Below, one piece after another: positions 7,849-17,138 of a DNA stretch of 64,000 bases. The position numbers and the translations under genes are program-made. Each line of letters begins with the position of its first letter. Position 1 is the stretch's first letter. Source of the DNA: a virus. The notes beneath the pieces were generated by a model. It saw nothing but the letters and a program-made list of their open reading frames with translations, ran no database searches and was not told where the DNA came from. The stretch lies in IMG/VR virus record IMGVR_UViG_3300025015_000010, positions 32,001 through 96,000 of that record. One strand, given 5' to 3'.

Positions 7849-8673
7849 ATGGCAGATTATAGTTTGGCAGTGTTGGTACACGGCAACGCAGTAAAGACGT
7901 ACGAACACAACAGTAAGACGTACGTAGAGGGCCGCAAAGGGTCTGAGTTTTCTATTCAGCTTCGCAACAATACAAGTTCCCAAGTTGAAGCCGTAGTTTC
8001 TGTAGATGGCAAGTCCGTGAACAACGGTGAAGCAGCCGCGTATGCGACTCGTGGCTACATTTTAGATGCTCACAGCACGCTCACAATTCCAGGCTGGCGG
8101 TTAAATAACCAGGAAGTTGCAAAATTTGGTTTTAACAGCGTTGGTGGATCATATGCGGCAAAGACAGGTGTGCCCGAAAATATTGGTGTTATTTCAGCCG
8201 CTTTCTTCAAAGAGAAGGTCAGTGTTTCGTTGGGTGGATCGGCAATTACAGTCTATTCTACGCAGCCGTGGGTTTACCAGAATCTGCAATGGCCAGAGTA
8301 TCCTAATAAGTTTTGGCTTAGCTCAGGCGGCACAACTGCCGACAGTTACAAAGGTTTGCGAAGCTGTACTACGTCTGCGAGCCTGAATTCTGGGCCTGCT
8401 TGTGCGGGTCACGAAGGCGCCCTTTGTGCGGATCAAACCAGCCAGAATATTGGTATTAGCTTCGGTCAAAAGGCAGATCATCAGGTGCATGAGGTATCTT
8501 TCGTTCGCGCCTCAGTGTCTCCTGATTCAGTAATCTCAGTTTATTATAATGACCGTCAAGGGCTTGAAACTATTGGTATTAACTTCAAGCCTGTGTCCAA
8601 GATAGCCGCTCCAAACCCATTTCCTGGTAATCCCGGTCAGGCATGCAAACCGCCCGACGGTTGGGTAGGCTAA
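7849..8673 (+). CDS. hypothetical protein
   Basis: Long ORF with GAGG RBS; VSVDG...GY...IPGWR...NIGVI...PFPG. Confidence 0.75.
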   Translation: MADYSLAVLVHGNAVKTYEHNSKTYVEGRKGSEFSIQLRNNTSSQVEAVVSVDGKSVNNGEAAAYATRGYILDAHSTLTIPGWRLNNQEVAKFGFNSVGGSYAAKTGVPENIGVISAAFFKEKVSVSLGGSAITVYSTQPWVYQNLQWPEYPNKFWLSSGGTTADSYKGLRSCTTSASLNSGPACAGHEGALCADQTSQNIGISFGQKADHQVHEVSFVRASVSPDSVISVYYNDRQGLETIGINFKPVSKIAAPNPFPGNPGQACKPPDGWVG

Positions 8674-8691: not shown

Positions 8692-8720
8692 TTGACATTA
8701 GCTCGCACAAGTGGTATAGT
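8692..8720 (+). promoter_or_regulatory. strong sigma70 promoter with extended -10, upstream of the RNA/Ro60 operon
   Basis: TTGACA (8692-8697), 17 bp, TATAGT (8715-8720) preceded by TG. Confidence 0.85.
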
Positions 8721-8769
8721 ACTAGCATAAGAAACAAATGACTTTGGAAACGGAGTCAAATTATGAAAA

Positions 8770-9090
8770 ATAGCGCGTAGATCCATGGGCCATAGCGAGA
8801 ATCCTAACAAAAAGTGCTACCAAGGCACCTCTATCCTACCTGTAAGGAATCGGACTGAGCATGTATGGCGGTATTGGGCAAAGCTCGCAAAGGTCCAAGC
8901 TAGGGATTGGACAATAAGATCCTTGGAGCCGGGTGAAAACCTCACTTCGTGTGACAGCAGGAAACCTGCTTTCAATCCTATTAGCGATTCGTTACCAGTA
9001 TACTGTTCGGGTAACGTCACTCATTCATGATTGTCATAAATGGGTATGAGAAATTGAACGGTTGCCATGTTAAAGTCCCGGAAACGGAAC
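8770..9090 (+). ncRNA. orphan IS607 TnpB omega-RNA/right-end copy with a different guide
   Basis: 8770-9061 is colinear with 16692-16983 up to the GG end; followed by TTGCCATGTTAAA and a GAAA hairpin; no tnpA, tnpB body or left end. Confidence 0.75.
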
Positions 9091-9091
9091 G

Positions 9092-9365
9092 AAATTAACC
9101 TCTTGGTGCAGTACAGCGAAGTGAAAGCACAGGAATAATTCTAGTGGATATAGCCGTAATCTATAGTACGAGTTGGCCATAGTAACTATAGTTGTGAGCA
9201 AGGCTGCTAGATACGTTGGACGACAGACGGTGACCTATGCCGGAAATGTACTTTGCGCCTTAATTGGCGGCGTACGAGCAAGGCTGATTAATCGTCAGCC
9301 TACTTAGCCTTCTAAAGATGCCGTAGTTCGTGTCGGTGAAAGCCCGGCCACCGAGAGTTTAATTT
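9092..9365 (+). ncRNA. ~275-nt structured RNA (raiA-motif-like local features)
   Basis: Terminal stem aaattaacctcttggtg / caccgagagtttaattt; several internal hairpins; no ORF. Confidence 0.7.
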
Positions 9366-9371
9366 TAGAAT

Positions 9372-9440
9372 ACTGAACGAGACGCTTTTGCAGGGTTATC
9401 CTATGGAGATAAAATCCTGCATACTAATTTGCCGTTCAGT
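9372..9440 (+). ncRNA. Y RNA-like 1 (minimal, variant Ro stem)
   Basis: actgaacg/cgttcagt stem; ACG...GGTTATC and TTTGCC. Confidence 0.55.
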
Positions 9441-9443
9441 TTT

Positions 9444-9556
9444 GTTTGTGTGGTACGGATGTTTGGGTTACCTACTGAGAAGTGATCCTCTTTAACTGGA
9501 TCACAAATAACAAGTAACACCCTAGCCCAAGCAAACACTTGACCGCTTCTACAAAC
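9444..9556 (+). ncRNA. Y RNA-like 2
   Basis: gtgGTACG...GGTTAC and CA...TTGACcgc Ro-type helix. Confidence 0.75.
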
Positions 9557-9643
9557 GAATATCGTGGTACGAATGCTTTTGGTTACCTTCAAATGGAAGT
9601 GGCTTCGGTCACAGAGCCAAAACAACTACTTGACCACATTATT
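9557..9643 (+). ncRNA. Y RNA-like 3
   Basis: gtgGTACGAATG...GGTTAC and CA...TTGACcac. Confidence 0.75.
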
Positions 9644-9663
9644 TTAACCAGAGGAGATTATCG

Positions 9664-11313
9664 ATGTCGAGTTATTTGAAGACTGCTGCGAATCGTAATC
9701 AGAGTACTACACTCCAGACCGAACAGGCACGCGAAGACCAGGTAGTCAACAACGCTGGTGGTTATGTATTTAGCCAGGATGCTTGGTTGAAGGTGAGGTC
9801 GTTTCTTATTCTTGGTGCCGAAGGTGGTACTTACTATGTCGGCGAGAAAGAATTGACTAAGCAGAACACCACTAATTTGCAGGCTTGTCTCAAGGAAGAT
9901 GGGCCACGCTTGGTGCAGTTGATACGCGAGGTATCAGTTAACGGTCTGGCGTCCAAGCAGTCAGCTACCTTGTTTTCCTTGGCGCTAGCCGCTGCGGATG
10001 GTAATGCTGCTACTCGTACGGAAGTTTTGAAGGTACGCGACGAAATTCTGCGTACTGGTTCACATCTGGAAGAATTTGCCAGTTATTTGCTTGGGCTCGG
10101 CTCAAAGTCTTCTAGGTTTACTCGCAGGCTGCTCGGTGGTTGGTACAATAAGCCTATTGACGATCTTGCTTATCAGGCTGTCAAGTACCAGTCCCGTGAA
10201 GGCGTGAGTCACCGCGATATTTTGCGCGTCGCCCATCCCAGGCCAGCGAGTGCATCTCACGATCACTTGTTTAAGTGGGTTGTAGATGGTTCAGCAACAA
10301 CAAAGCCGGTTCCAGAAAAGTTTGCTAACAGAATCAATGTAAAAGCTTTGAAGTCTGTCTTGCAGTTACCAGCGATTGTACAAGCTTTCGAGCGGGCTAA
10401 GGCAGCAACTACTGATACCGAGATTGTGCAGCTTATTACAGAGCATAATCTTCCTCGCGAGTGTATTCCCACACAGTGGCTGAATTCGATTCCAGTGTGG
10501 GAAGCCTTATTGGCAAAGATGCCATTGACCGCGCTGATTCGTAATTTAGGGAAGATGTCTTCGGTCGGACTACTTAGGCCACTTAATGAGGCTTCTAAGC
10601 TGATTGTAGAGAAGCTTAATGACCAAGAGTACTTGACCAAGTCTAGGATTCATCCTATCGGTGTATTGTCGGCTCTGAAGACTTACGAAAGTGGTCACGG
10701 CGTTCGTGGTAAGCTATCTTGGGAACCAGTCAAGCAGGTAATTGATGCGTTGGATAGTGCGTTCTATAAGACGTTTAAGAATGTAGAACCCACTGGCAAG
10801 AACTTCCTACTAGCCTTAGACGTATCAGGTTCGATGGGTGAGGGAGATGTGGGTGGCGTACCTGGATTGAGTCCACGCGAAGCTTCTGCGGCTATGGCTC
10901 TAGTGACTGCTGCCACTGAACCAAACTACGAAATTTTTGGATTTTCAAATAGCTTTGTAAGACTTAATATTACACCCAGGATGCGCTTGGATCAGGCTAC
11001 GAAGGTCATTAGTAATCTGCCATTTGATGGCACAGATTGCTCATTACCAATTCAGTATGCAGATAGGCAGGGCTTAAACGTGGACACGTTTATTGTCTAT
11101 ACTGACAGCGAGACTTACACAGGCAGAATTCATCCGTTCCAGGCTCTCAAGAAGTACCGCGCTAAGACGGGTAAGTTTTCTAAATTGATCGTTGTTGGTA
11201 TGGTTTCCAATGGTTTTACGATTGCAGATCCAAATGACCGAGGCTCACTAGACGTAGTTGGTTTTGACTCATCTGTACCCGAGGTTATTAGGTCGTTTAC
11301 TCTAGCTCAGTAA
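9664..11313 (+). CDS. rsr: Ro60/Rsr RNA-binding protein (TROVE + vWA)
   Basis: NNAGGYVF, FLILG.EGGTYY, KYQSREG.SHRD.LR.AHP, LIRNLGKM, IHP, MIDAS DVSGSM and GFD. Confidence 0.96.
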   Translation: MSSYLKTAANRNQSTTLQTEQAREDQVVNNAGGYVFSQDAWLKVRSFLILGAEGGTYYVGEKELTKQNTTNLQACLKEDGPRLVQLIREVSVNGLASKQSATLFSLALAAADGNAATRTEVLKVRDEILRTGSHLEEFASYLLGLGSKSSRFTRRLLGGWYNKPIDDLAYQAVKYQSREGVSHRDILRVAHPRPASASHDHLFKWVVDGSATTKPVPEKFANRINVKALKSVLQLPAIVQAFERAKAATTDTEIVQLITEHNLPRECIPTQWLNSIPVWEALLAKMPLTALIRNLGKMSSVGLLRPLNEASKLIVEKLNDQEYLTKSRIHPIGVLSALKTYESGHGVRGKLSWEPVKQVIDALDSAFYKTFKNVEPTGKNFLLALDVSGSMGEGDVGGVPGLSPREASAAMALVTAATEPNYEIFGFSNSFVRLNITPRMRLDQATKVISNLPFDGTDCSLPIQYADRQGLNVDTFIVYTDSETYTGRIHPFQALKKYRAKTGKFSKLIVVGMVSNGFTIADPNDRGSLDVVGFDSSVPEVIRSFTLAQ

Positions 11314-11320
11314 AAGCATT

Positions 11321-11450
11321 AGTCGGTACGTCAGTACTGGGTTATCTTCTTAGGGAAGTGAGGCACAGGTTCGAATCCTGTCGGGTGACGCGAGTCACAC
11401 GTAGCTTAGTGGACAGAGCGCATTAGCTCCAGTACAGTATTTGACCGGCT
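11321..11450 (+). ncRNA. yrlA: YrlA-type Y RNA (permuted tRNA-like domain)
   Basis: Ro stem agtcgGTACG / TTGACcggct; T arm acaggTTCGAATcctgt precedes a GCGA-capped acceptor stem and the D arm tagcttagtggacagagc. Confidence 0.9.
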
Positions 11451-12833: not shown

Positions 12834-12943
12834 ACTCTGGTTGGCGTGTCGCAGATACAGTTTCCCCTCCTTTTCTGTGTTTGTGACCGAGGCTTTGCTG
12901 TCAGACCGTCATAGTTTCGACGCGGGTCAGAGCCAACCAGAGT
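12834..12943 (+). ncRNA. putative sRNA with an anti-Shine-Dalgarno loop
   Basis: 12-bp terminal stem actctggttggc/gccaaccagagt; 13-bp hairpin with loop TTTCCCCTCCTTTT. Confidence 0.6.
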
Positions 12944-12952
12944 TTTTAACTT

Positions 12953-14766: not shown

Positions 14767-14926
14767 ATTTGATGGTCGATGGAAGTGGTGTCCAGCGTGT
14801 AAAATACCTAGGATCAAATGTCTAGACCCAGACTGTTTTGGCCCGTCTTGTAATGGCGGCGGGTTCTCAACAGTAAATTAGAATCTACCCTTGAAACCCC
14901 CATCAATACAGTGGTAGACTTAATAT

Positions 14927-15499
14927 ATGAAGCTGAATGATTGGGCAAAGCTGCAAGGGATCACTTATAAAACAGCACATCGCTGGTTTCAAGCAGGTAT
15001 TATTCCTGATCCTGTAAGACAACTTCCAACAGGAACGATTCTGGTCGATGTCGAAAACATTACGAAAGTAGAAAATAGGACCGCGCTTTACGCCCGAGTT
15101 TCATCTTCTGGCCAGAAGGTTGATTTAGACCGACAAACATCAAGACTTATGAGTTTTGCACTCGAAAACAAACTGACCATTGTTGATTCTGTACAGGAAA
15201 TCGGCAGTGGTCTTAACGGACATCGCAAAAAGTTACTGAAGTTGCTGGCCGATAAAAGCATAAATACCATTGTTATAGAGCATCGAGAACGTCTTGCACG
15301 ATTTGGATTTGATTACATCGAAGCAGCCTTGGCCGCGACTGGGCGTAAGCTTGTAGTGATAGACAGCACTGAGATGAAAGACGATTTAGTTCAGGACATG
15401 ATTGATGTTTTGACATCATTTTGTGCAAGACTTTACGGACGCAGGTCCGCAAAGAACAAGGCAAAGAAAGCCATAGAAAGCATTCATGAGCAAGGATAG
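14927..15499 (+). CDS. tnpA: IS607 serine recombinase
   Basis: N-terminal HTH, YARVSS, EIGSGLN, ERLARFG and RLYGRRS. Confidence 0.96.
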   Translation: MKLNDWAKLQGITYKTAHRWFQAGIIPDPVRQLPTGTILVDVENITKVENRTALYARVSSSGQKVDLDRQTSRLMSFALENKLTIVDSVQEIGSGLNGHRKKLLKLLADKSINTIVIEHRERLARFGFDYIEAALAATGRKLVVIDSTEMKDDLVQDMIDVLTSFCARLYGRRSAKNKAKKAIESIHEQG

Positions 15500-16952
15500 C
15501 ATTTCCACATTTCAGACTAGGATCGATTCATACCCAGCTTTACAGGCTTATGCAGACCGTCATAATCTGGTCGAGCACAAGTTGTACGCCCAGATATTAG
15601 CCGGTAAAAAGCCGAACAAACTTAAGCAAGCGTTCCTAGTTAAGTATGGCATTACGGCGCGACAATTCAATGCTATTGAGCGAAATCTACGCGGTAAAAT
15701 TAGCAGTGTTCAAGAACTTCGCAAGGACCATAAAAAGGAAACAAACTACAGGATCAAGGATTGTGAGCGCAAGATAGAATTTGTCAAGGACAATCTCAAA
15801 CAGCACAATTTGAAGCGCAGATTGCATGGCCTAAAAACCAGGTTGGCCAGGCTCGAACAGATGCCAAAATCCTTGTGTTTCGGGTCCAGGAAGTTGTTCA
15901 ACTCACAATTCGGTCCAGAAATAGATCATGATGTTTGGTCCAGTGATTGGAAACAGTCCCGTTCGAGTCAGTTCTATGTTCTCGGTTCTCACGAAGAAAC
16001 ATCAGGGTGCCAAGGATGTGTCGCTACTGTGCAGGACGACGGCAGCTTAACGCTACGTTTGCGCCTTCCAGATGCACTGATGGCCATCCATGGTAAGTAT
16101 ATTGAAATCCCCGGCGTGTACTTTAACCACGGCCATGAGCATGTACTACAGGCCCTGGCTTTGGGTAATACACCAACCAACTACAGGTTTAAGCTAGATG
16201 GCATTGGCTGGAGAGTCTTCGTTTCAGTTCACGTCATCGAAGCCAAAATTGTTACCAGGGACAGCCTGGGCAGAGTCGGTTTTGACCTTAATGAAGATCA
16301 CATCGCAGTTACCGAGACCGACCGTTTTGGAAATATAATCAACACGTTCAATGAGCCTGTAATAACCACAGACTTGACCACGCACCAGACATTGGCAGTC
16401 TTAGGCAATGCAGTTAAGAATATCGTAGCTTACGCCAAGAACGTTCAAAAGCCTATTGTTATTGAGAAGTTAGATTTCCAAAAGAAACGTGCTGAACTTC
16501 GTGGCCGAGGCCAAACTGCGAAGAATCTTAGTTCATTCGCGTACAGTAAATTCAGATCCATAGTCGTATCGCGTTGTCAGCGAGAAGGCATTAAGGTTTA
16601 CAACGTGAATCCGGCCTACACATCGATTATCGGTAGAAATAAGTTCGCGCTTCGGTACGGACTCACAGTACACAATGCAGCGGCGCTAACTATAGCACGT
16701 AGATCCATGGGCCTAAGTGAGAACCCAAATAAAAAGTGCTACCAAGGCACCTCTTTCCTACCTGTAAGGAATCGGACAGAGCATGTGTGGCGGTACTGGG
16801 CAAAACTCGCAAAGGCTCAAGCTAGGGATTGGGCCACAAGATCCTCGAAACCTGACGCAAATCACGTTTCGTGTGATAGCAGGAAACCTGCTCTCGGTCC
16901 TATTAGCGATTCGTTACCAGTATACTGTTCGGGTAACGTCACTCATTCGTGA
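15486..16952 (+). CDS. tnpB: TnpB-related RNA-guided protein without Zn finger
   Basis: RuvC-I GFDLN, RuvC-II VIEKL, VNPAYTS and RuvC-III region VHNAAALTIARR. Confidence 0.9.
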   Translation: MSKDSISTFQTRIDSYPALQAYADRHNLVEHKLYAQILAGKKPNKLKQAFLVKYGITARQFNAIERNLRGKISSVQELRKDHKKETNYRIKDCERKIEFVKDNLKQHNLKRRLHGLKTRLARLEQMPKSLCFGSRKLFNSQFGPEIDHDVWSSDWKQSRSSQFYVLGSHEETSGCQGCVATVQDDGSLTLRLRLPDALMAIHGKYIEIPGVYFNHGHEHVLQALALGNTPTNYRFKLDGIGWRVFVSVHVIEAKIVTRDSLGRVGFDLNEDHIAVTETDRFGNIINTFNEPVITTDLTTHQTLAVLGNAVKNIVAYAKNVQKPIVIEKLDFQKKRAELRGRGQTAKNLSSFAYSKFRSIVVSRCQREGIKVYNVNPAYTSIIGRNKFALRYGLTVHNAAALTIARRSMGLSENPNKKCYQGTSFLPVRNRTEHVWRYWAKLAKAQARDWATRSSKPDANHVSCDSRKPALGPISDSLPVYCSGNVTHS

Positions 16953-17138
16953 TTGTCATAAATGGGTATGAGAAATTGAACGGTGTTCAAAATGTTCGGA
17001 CGATTTCGATGAGGCTATCGATATGATCAATAATGGTACGGCCCCAACCCATGCTGATTTTCCAAATGCAGACGCCGATGAGATTGAGTACAATAATGAT
17101 CCATTAGGACTTGGTTCGTTGAGTAAAGGAACATCTTG

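Follow-up and report, generated by a model that had tools for sequence, protein, structure and literature searches.

A truncated IS607 right end as a probable stand-alone omega-RNA in the RNA/Ro60 operon of a groundwater phage

The locus and its relatives

The DNA analyzed here, referred to as the window, is a stretch of 64,000 nucleotides corresponding to positions 32001-96000 of a 168,734-bp IMG/VR virus record from a groundwater phage. Coordinates are those of the window unless the record (G000:C1) is named. The region is densely coding on the plus strand and contains 5 tRNA genes, and near-identical contigs are present in several groundwater assemblies. Downstream of a gene at 7849-8673 lie, all on the plus strand, a sigma-70-type promoter (8692-8720), a leader hairpin (8739-8758), an orphan right end of an IS607 element (8770-9061), and a gene for Ro60 (9664-11313, with TROVE and vWA domains, PF05731 and PF25045) in the same apparent transcription unit. 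A full IS607 element, called the resident copy below, occupies 14861-16983.

The region has no match by megablast or blastn among 50,697 phage records. Protein searches of viral contigs with TnpB and with the upstream 278-aa gene return no relatives, and a search with Ro60 returns only relatives at 44%. Contigs from related phages were obtained through a protein collection instead. Homologues of the gene at 7849-8673 are found at 73-75% identity on L037/L038, L039 and L040. L037/L038 preserve the gene order of the window, from an integrase-like gene to Ro60; the short contigs L039 and L040 have the upstream part in common with it.

The resident IS607 and its TnpB

The left end of the resident element, placed at about 14861, starts GG(G)TTCTCAACAG after a CGGG flank. 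The tnpA gene (14927-15499, plus strand) scores 200 bits to the IS607 transposase equivalog model NF033518 (transpos_IS607), whose cut-off is 110, and also matches the Pfam Resolvase family. The tnpB gene (15486-16952, plus strand) overlaps tnpA, reaches the right end of the element, and scores 50 bits to TIGR01766 against a cut-off of 32. The omega-RNA region spans about 16692-16983, and the guide position that follows (16984-16999, plus strand) reads TGTTCAAAATGTTCGG. Assignment to the IS607 family follows from the serine-recombinase TnpA, the TnpB, the GG core at the ends, insertion at NGGG, the varied flanks, and the empty sites described below.

The TnpB protein (488 aa) has no Pfam match above cut-off, and comparison with the PDB by sequence, either as a single sequence or as a profile, gives nothing useful; it is the fold search that decides its identity. 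An AlphaFold model (pLDDT 76.5) retrieves Cas12f and TnpB folds by Foldseek (best E 4e-10), including the TnpB proteins of ISFba1 and ISDra2. RuvC-I (D267) and RuvC-II (E327) align with canonical TnpB, and the NPAYTS motif is kept. Neither the third RuvC motif nor the zinc finger is canonical, CxxC pairs being absent. In a by-eye comparison of motifs, the invariant histidine H396 (VHNAAAL) takes the position of the third RuvC aspartate of canonical TnpB (HADxNAA); the invariant residues after it are E412, R428, R430, H433, W435 and W438. The clade to which this protein belongs is divergent and counts over 2,400 homologues, most of them 500-540 aa long. Separately, positions 168,407-168,729 at the right end of the record, outside the window, are 86% identical in nucleotides to the 3' part of a canonical TnpB gene found on L011 (373 aa, PF07282), so the phage probably carries a second, unrelated TnpB element that is cut by the end of the contig.

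Across the family, IS607 right ends read AACGG and are followed by at least seven different flanks, nearly all starting with T, while the four independent left flanks are CGGG, TGGG, CGGG and TGGG. In the phage of the window, two sites that relatives have filled with a copy are cleanly empty. One is GCGGG/TCAGAGCC at about 12925 (window 12,900-12,945, approximately; the slash marks the insertion point), where GCGGG/TCAGAGCCAACCAGAG here corresponds to the insertion CACGGG/IS/TCTTGAGCCAGCCGAG in L037/L047. The other is CAGGG/CACGAATTTCG at position 130,966 of the record, outside the window, where CAGGG/CACGAATTTCGTAAAT here corresponds to IS/TACGAATCTCGTAAAT in L043. Neither empty allele fits the guide of its relative perfectly: one has 2 mismatches, and the other has an indel in addition to mismatches. 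According to the published rule for IS607 TnpB, the TAM is TGGG, the scaffold ends in UCGG, and self is discriminated from non-self at position -3 (10.1101/2023.11.20.567912). The flanks and empty sites seen here agree with that rule, and matched filled and empty sites of this kind indicate that the family is moving actively among related groundwater phages.

Anatomy and origin of the orphan right end

A first-pass annotation of this DNA described 8770-9061 as an exact copy of the last 292 bp of the resident IS607. The extent is correct and the exactness is not: the two stretches, 8770-9061 and 16692-16983, form a gapless alignment of 292 bp in which 259 of the 292 positions are identical (88.7%). 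Both copies stop where the annotation had placed the GG end, in the sequence GAACGG, after which the flanks differ (TTGCCATGTTAAAGTC at the orphan, TGTTCAAAATGTTCGG at the resident copy). These two are the only copies of the 292-bp stretch in the whole 168,734-bp record. Near 8770 there is no tnpA, no tnpB body, no left end, and no other IS607 sequence, again as first described. The orphan has a right end only and not both of the transposon ends that mobilization as a unit calls for; without a left end and a transposase, it is unable to move.

The junctions of the orphan are identical in at least four independent assemblies. An assembly artefact was considered as a source of the arrangement and is ruled out by the recurrence of the same junctions. 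All copies of the orphan found belong to one near-clonal phage population, and the nearest relatives lack it.

Sister IS607 copies with TnpB proteins 85-86% identical lie on other groundwater contigs. The orphan is closer to one of these (L011, L012 and L049, 93.9%) than to the resident copy (88.7%), and this sustains the earlier proposal that it came from a sister element. Twelve changes are private to the orphan, and 9 of the 12 fall at third codon positions, in keeping with the earlier remark that the differences in the 5' part are mostly synonymous. A residual open frame (8767-9030, plus strand) represents the last 87 codons of the sister tnpB, shows no Shine-Dalgarno sequence, and is not called as a gene. 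Since the private changes favor third positions and the frame has stayed open, it was in a coding element, namely a third sister copy, that the divergence arose, with little or nothing changed since the truncation, which is therefore recent. It also follows that nearly all of the private changes predate the truncation, so that the sequence offers no evidence of selection acting on the orphan, nor of the domesticated guide that the first-pass annotation proposed. Taken together, the alignments point to a right end left by recent truncation of a sister IS607.

The last 86 nt (8976-9061 against 16898-16983, scaffold positions 207-292) show a different affinity, with 1 difference to the resident copy and 4 to the closest sister; that the last 80 nt or so are almost identical to the resident had been seen correctly. 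This closer 3' match counts against reading the orphan as a plain remnant. It could come from gene conversion between two copies in one genome, for which few sites are available, or from tuning to the resident TnpB.

One of the sister copies has a composite structure of its own. L012, a 2,546-bp contig, has a left flank and left end identical to those of the resident IS site in the phage, a sister-type body, and the right flank of L011 and L049. Either assembly across the repeat has made a chimera of it, or it is a recombinant.

The open frame raises the question of a small protein gene, in which 8785-9030 (81 aa) would encode a TnpB C-terminal tail peptide, such as a modulator of TnpB. The frame does retain the family-invariant residues R405, R406, E412, R428, R430, H433, W435 and W438. 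However, no Shine-Dalgarno-like sequence precedes the ATG, no assembly has the frame called as a gene, the TnpB tail is of low confidence or disordered in the structural model, and recent truncation already explains why the frame is open. We consider a protein-coding role hardly credible.

Extent and fold of the omega-RNA scaffold

The tnpB 3' end overlaps the omega-RNA. In a codon-by-codon comparison of four full copies, the fraction identical in nucleotide sequence among codons with a conserved amino acid is 0.21-0.45 in the tnpB body of the resident element, 0.64 at 16656-16691, and 0.73-0.95 (mostly 0.87-0.95) from 16692 onward. The rise in conservation at synonymous sites thus falls at the position matching the left edge of the orphan, which argues that the omega-RNA starts there; the edge lies within approximately 0-35 nt of the omega-RNA start. 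A random deletion endpoint in the 2.1-kb element would land at this start only about 2% of the time. The coincidence hints at selection for a minimal working module, which would weigh against a mere remnant, or else at a mechanism biased to this point.

Six distinct copies give a consensus fold with 88 pairs, spread over the entire 292 nt, and 98.9% of cells are paired, as compared to 30-43% in slid controls. Six pairs, in the 5' and central domains, show compensatory change. With only 6 closely related sequences behind it, the support for this fold is moderate. The orphan keeps 86 of the 88 predicted pairs and breaks two, 23:122 and 160:175, so the earlier description of its differences as structure-preserving holds. 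Rfam has no family for the omega-RNA. By extent and predicted fold, the orphan appears to retain the entire omega-RNA scaffold and nothing more of the element.

A conserved promoter cassette and a variable slot

The promoter at 8692-8720, TTGACA-17-(TG)TATAGT, scores 11/12 and is the top match within 5-19 kb (14 kb). It was rightly described as near-consensus, sits some 50 nt ahead of the orphan, and is in sense orientation to it. The leader hairpin that follows (8739-8758, GACUUUG-GAAA-CGGAGUC) has a folding energy of -9.2 kcal/mol (z -4.9), and its stem covaries among five cassettes, which include those of relatives and a second one in this genome. Promoter and hairpin are conserved together in L037/L038, L040 and L039. 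They constitute a phage cassette and are no part of the IS. The promoter is consequently not the orphan's own, as the first-pass annotation had it; its presence in relatives and its duplication in the genome indicate that it predates the insertion.

The leader hairpin had also been paired with a second one at 9075-9090, the two being thought to bracket the orphan. Only the first half of this is borne out. The second hairpin is no better than shuffled sequence (z -0.4), and GGAAACGG occurs in the genome at about chance frequency. A role for the second hairpin as a terminator or guide-limiter is likewise unsupported, since the hairpin is not significant, and the idea that a hairpin 13 nt into the guide would favor binding over cutting falls with it.

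The second promoter-hairpin cassette of the phage lies at about 113,288 of the record on the minus strand and is followed by roughly 800 nt without ORFs longer than 60 aa. This locus (L056; record positions of about 112,400-113,290, minus strand, the cassette being at window coordinate 81,288, approximately, and so outside the window) reads TTGACA-17-TATAGT and then AGCATAAGAGACAAACGACTCGGAAACGAGTCAAAAC. It has long closing stems, e.g. TAGGCCAGTAGTG...CACTACTGGCCTA, and no Rfam match. It looks like a second non-coding-RNA locus.

Homology of the relatives to the window halts at 8763 and restarts at 9371. In between, the relatives carry unrelated sequence, 796 nt in one (L037:2322-3117) and 616 nt in another (L040:1264-1879), that is apparently non-coding, with at most one short ORF call (108 aa, minus strand, in L037) and no Rfam match. 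Where homology to the window breaks off, the relatives' sequences part from one another too, with a common module of about 340 nt at 78% identity. From this break in homology and from the unrelated cargo of the relatives it follows that a conserved RNA operon has a first slot of variable content, and that the orphan sits in it. The slot (8764-9370, plus strand) is filled in this phage by the omega-RNA module and about 309 nt of unassigned RNA-like sequence, and it behaves like an exchangeable position for RNA cargo. Weak Y-RNA-like matches, YrlB-like and YrlA-like, flank Ro60 at 9369-9441 and 11339-11450, and the plus strand has no terminator-like site from 8720 to 11323. Two further observations concern the relatives: the YrlA-like match is stronger in L037 (30.5 bits, E 0.0025), and immediately ahead of the Y-RNA-like array the relatives have an additional promoter (TTGACT-17-TAGACT) that the phage of the window lacks.

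After the hairpin, the leader reads AAACTATAAAAAACTAG in the second cassette and AAATTATGAAAAATAG at the orphan, where IS sequence then begins. This comparison puts the join of leader and IS within a 3-4 nt microhomology, ATAG (8770-8773), of the kind that illegitimate joining would leave.

Guide position and search for targets

The first 16 nt of the right flank of the orphan (9062-9077, plus strand), TTGCCATGTTAAAGTC, occupy the guide position. By the NGGG rule, the expected target is NGGG followed by TTGCCATGTTAAAGTC (in longer form NGGG + TTGCCATGTTAAAGTCCCGG, with NGGG/TTGCCATGTTAAAG as the uninterrupted allele). The first-pass annotation took this to be a new guide that reprograms the resident TnpB. 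An omega-RNA module and a presumably compatible TnpB gene are indeed both present, tnpB starting at 15486, 6.4 kb downstream of the end of the orphan. The guide, however, is nothing other than the insertion flank, as in every copy of this IS607 family, where the guide is the DNA adjoining the transposon end.

The predicted target, NGGG followed by the guide, was found neither in the phage genome, nor in related loci, nor in two scans of sequence collections. In its own genome the guide is unique, with no other site at up to 3 mismatches. The 1.08 Mb comprising this genome and related loci have no site of GGG plus guide at up to 5 mismatches. The collection scans were for exact matches only. 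Among viral contigs the guide 16-mer has 22 matches, about the number estimated for chance, none of them preceded by GG and none extending further. Among 596 Gb of prokaryote genomes the 18-mer of GG plus guide has 6 matches, fewer than a rough chance estimate of about 17, and none with GGG.

A relative with the uninterrupted allele would complete the history of the site. None appears among viral contigs with a 26-mer taken from 9103-9128, nor among the loci of relatives, so a history of insertion followed by truncation is one that we infer. The relatives offer neither the orphan cassette nor the clean empty site GG/TTGCCATG that, according to the first-pass annotation, would mark a decayed insertion; their slot holds the unrelated sequence described above. 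Nor do other orphans emerge. A conserved scaffold 20-mer has 0 matches in viral contigs, and its 8 matches in metagenome contigs are consistent with full copies cut at contig ends, none being demonstrably an orphan.

These results bear on what the orphan could be for. It might be a domesticated trans-guide, that is, a minimal omega-RNA gene kept in order to aim the resident TnpB at a locus of a competitor phage or of the host, either to cut it or to block it. The module is minimal and complete, with its left edge at the omega-RNA start; the best promoter match within 14 kb lies 50 nt ahead of it, with the module in sense orientation; its structure is intact and its 3' scaffold nearly identical to that of the resident; and it fills a slot in an operon that otherwise carries non-coding RNAs. 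Set against this, no TAM-competent target is found in its own genome, the 1.08 Mb of related loci, viral contigs, or the 596 Gb of prokaryote genomes. The guide is an insertion flank as in each mobile copy, the promoter predates the orphan, the nearest relatives lack the module, and the private changes record coding selection before the truncation, with none visible on the orphan itself. Trans use of the orphan is plausible on sequence grounds; domestication is unsupported, and we regard this explanation as doubtful.

At the other extreme, the orphan might be inert debris, at most a passive leader of the Ro60/Y-RNA operon if transcribed, which either is not loaded by TnpB or has no target, and which will decay. 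Its immobility, for want of a left end and a transposase, would fit, as would the missing target, the two broken pairs (23:122 and 160:175), and the restriction of the orphan to one lineage. But the orphan retains 86 of 88 pairs, an open frame, and a 3' scaffold that agrees with that of the resident; moreover, it lies directly behind a strong conserved promoter with no terminator-like site between, and published stand-alone omega-RNAs act in trans (PMC10691335). Inertness is an explanation to keep in mind, although an unlikely one.

A model for the origin of the orphan

The reading we prefer, at a probability of about 0.62, is that the orphan is the truncated right end of a sister IS607, that it is likely transcribed, and that it would form a TnpB-compatible, stand-alone omega-RNA, with no sign that the phage has selected it for use. 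A sister IS607 copy would have inserted at NGGG/T in the variable first slot of the phage non-coding-RNA/Ro60 operon. Illegitimate, microhomology-type joining to the operon leader would then have removed the left end, tnpA, and tnpB up to codon 402, leaving the full omega-RNA scaffold and a flank that could serve as the guide. The orphan lies about 43 nt downstream of the predicted start of the conserved promoter, in sense orientation, and its place behind this strong promoter makes transcription most likely, with the orphan as the predicted first RNA of the operon. For ISDra2, TnpB is known to carry out 5' trimming (PMC10278001). The resident TnpB could take up the orphan RNA because its own omega-RNA differs from it at just 1 of the last 86 scaffold positions. 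We infer transcription, loading onto TnpB, and any activity from these sequence features. The default target would be the uninterrupted allele NGGG-TTGCCATGTTAAAGTC in related phages, with homing or exclusion in mixed infections as the possible outcome; the orphan RNA would be no regulator.

One speculative route to the truncation is abortive repair. TnpB might have cleaved an empty slot, after which a fragment proximal to the right end was joined by microhomology. On this route homology would exist only on the right, since the content of the slot to the left differs between phages.

In a bolder version of the model the orphan persists because it is functional. It would be a promoter-driven "mini-array" with a single guide, turning the transposon-borne TnpB on rival phages that have the uninterrupted allele, or on a host site not yet sampled. 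We think this improbable. If true, the locus would stand midway from selfish omega-RNAs to trans guides of a CRISPR-like sort, and its home would be a modular RNA operon of the phage in which lineages exchange the cargo of the first slot.

Comparison with known systems

Stand-alone omega-RNAs that have neither effector nor transposase beside them work in trans (Altae-Tran et al. 2021, as cited in PMC10691335). The orphan resembles them in consisting of a scaffold and a flank-derived guide, with no adjacent effector but with an effector locus of the same family elsewhere in the genome. Homology that runs exactly to the element boundary, conserved structure, the absence of an attached effector or transposase, and an effector encoded elsewhere in the genome all place it in this class. 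The published examples are described as evidently mobilized, whereas the orphan is a product of truncation, without a left end and immobile. It differs also in being IS607-type, in a phage, and behind the captured promoter of a Ro60/non-coding-RNA operon, with an activity that is predicted.

The parent element resembles the IS607 element CboIStron (10.1101/2023.11.20.567912) in its serine-recombinase TnpA, a tnpB 3' end that overlaps the omega-RNA, and a scaffold that ends in CGG, as well as in insertion after NGGG, with G in the target and C in the element at position -3. The orphan holds just the last 292 bp of such an element. Unlike that of CboIStron, the TnpB here belongs to a divergent clade with no Pfam match, no CxxC pairs, and, by eye, a histidine at the third RuvC aspartate. 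PATE-like elements of the IS200/IS605 type (10.1101/2023.03.14.532601) are likewise protein-free omega-RNA carriers that need a TnpB from elsewhere. They keep both ends, however, and can be mobilized in trans, while the orphan is from the IS607 family and has a right end only.

The TldR proteins, nuclease-dead repressors (10.1101/2023.11.30.569447), come closest to what the first-pass annotation proposed, a TnpB-derived guide used for something beyond transposon upkeep. The TldR guide matches a host or phage promoter, and the protein has lost both its RuvC residues and its transposon context. Here, by contrast, the data contain no matching target, and the TnpB belongs to an active, multi-copy IS607. 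Given that the guide has no TAM-flanked target and that the orphan is not conserved across diverged relatives, it does not group with domesticated guides of the TldR type.

Stand-alone guides are a kind already known, and the orphan adds no new principle as yet. What it documents is how such loci can originate, from a sister insertion truncated beside a strong promoter, along with matched filled and empty IS607 sites among related groundwater phages. If the RNA is made and loaded, a single phage TnpB would work with two guides, of which one comes from a locus unable to move, and this would be a first step from a transposon guide to a trans-acting one.
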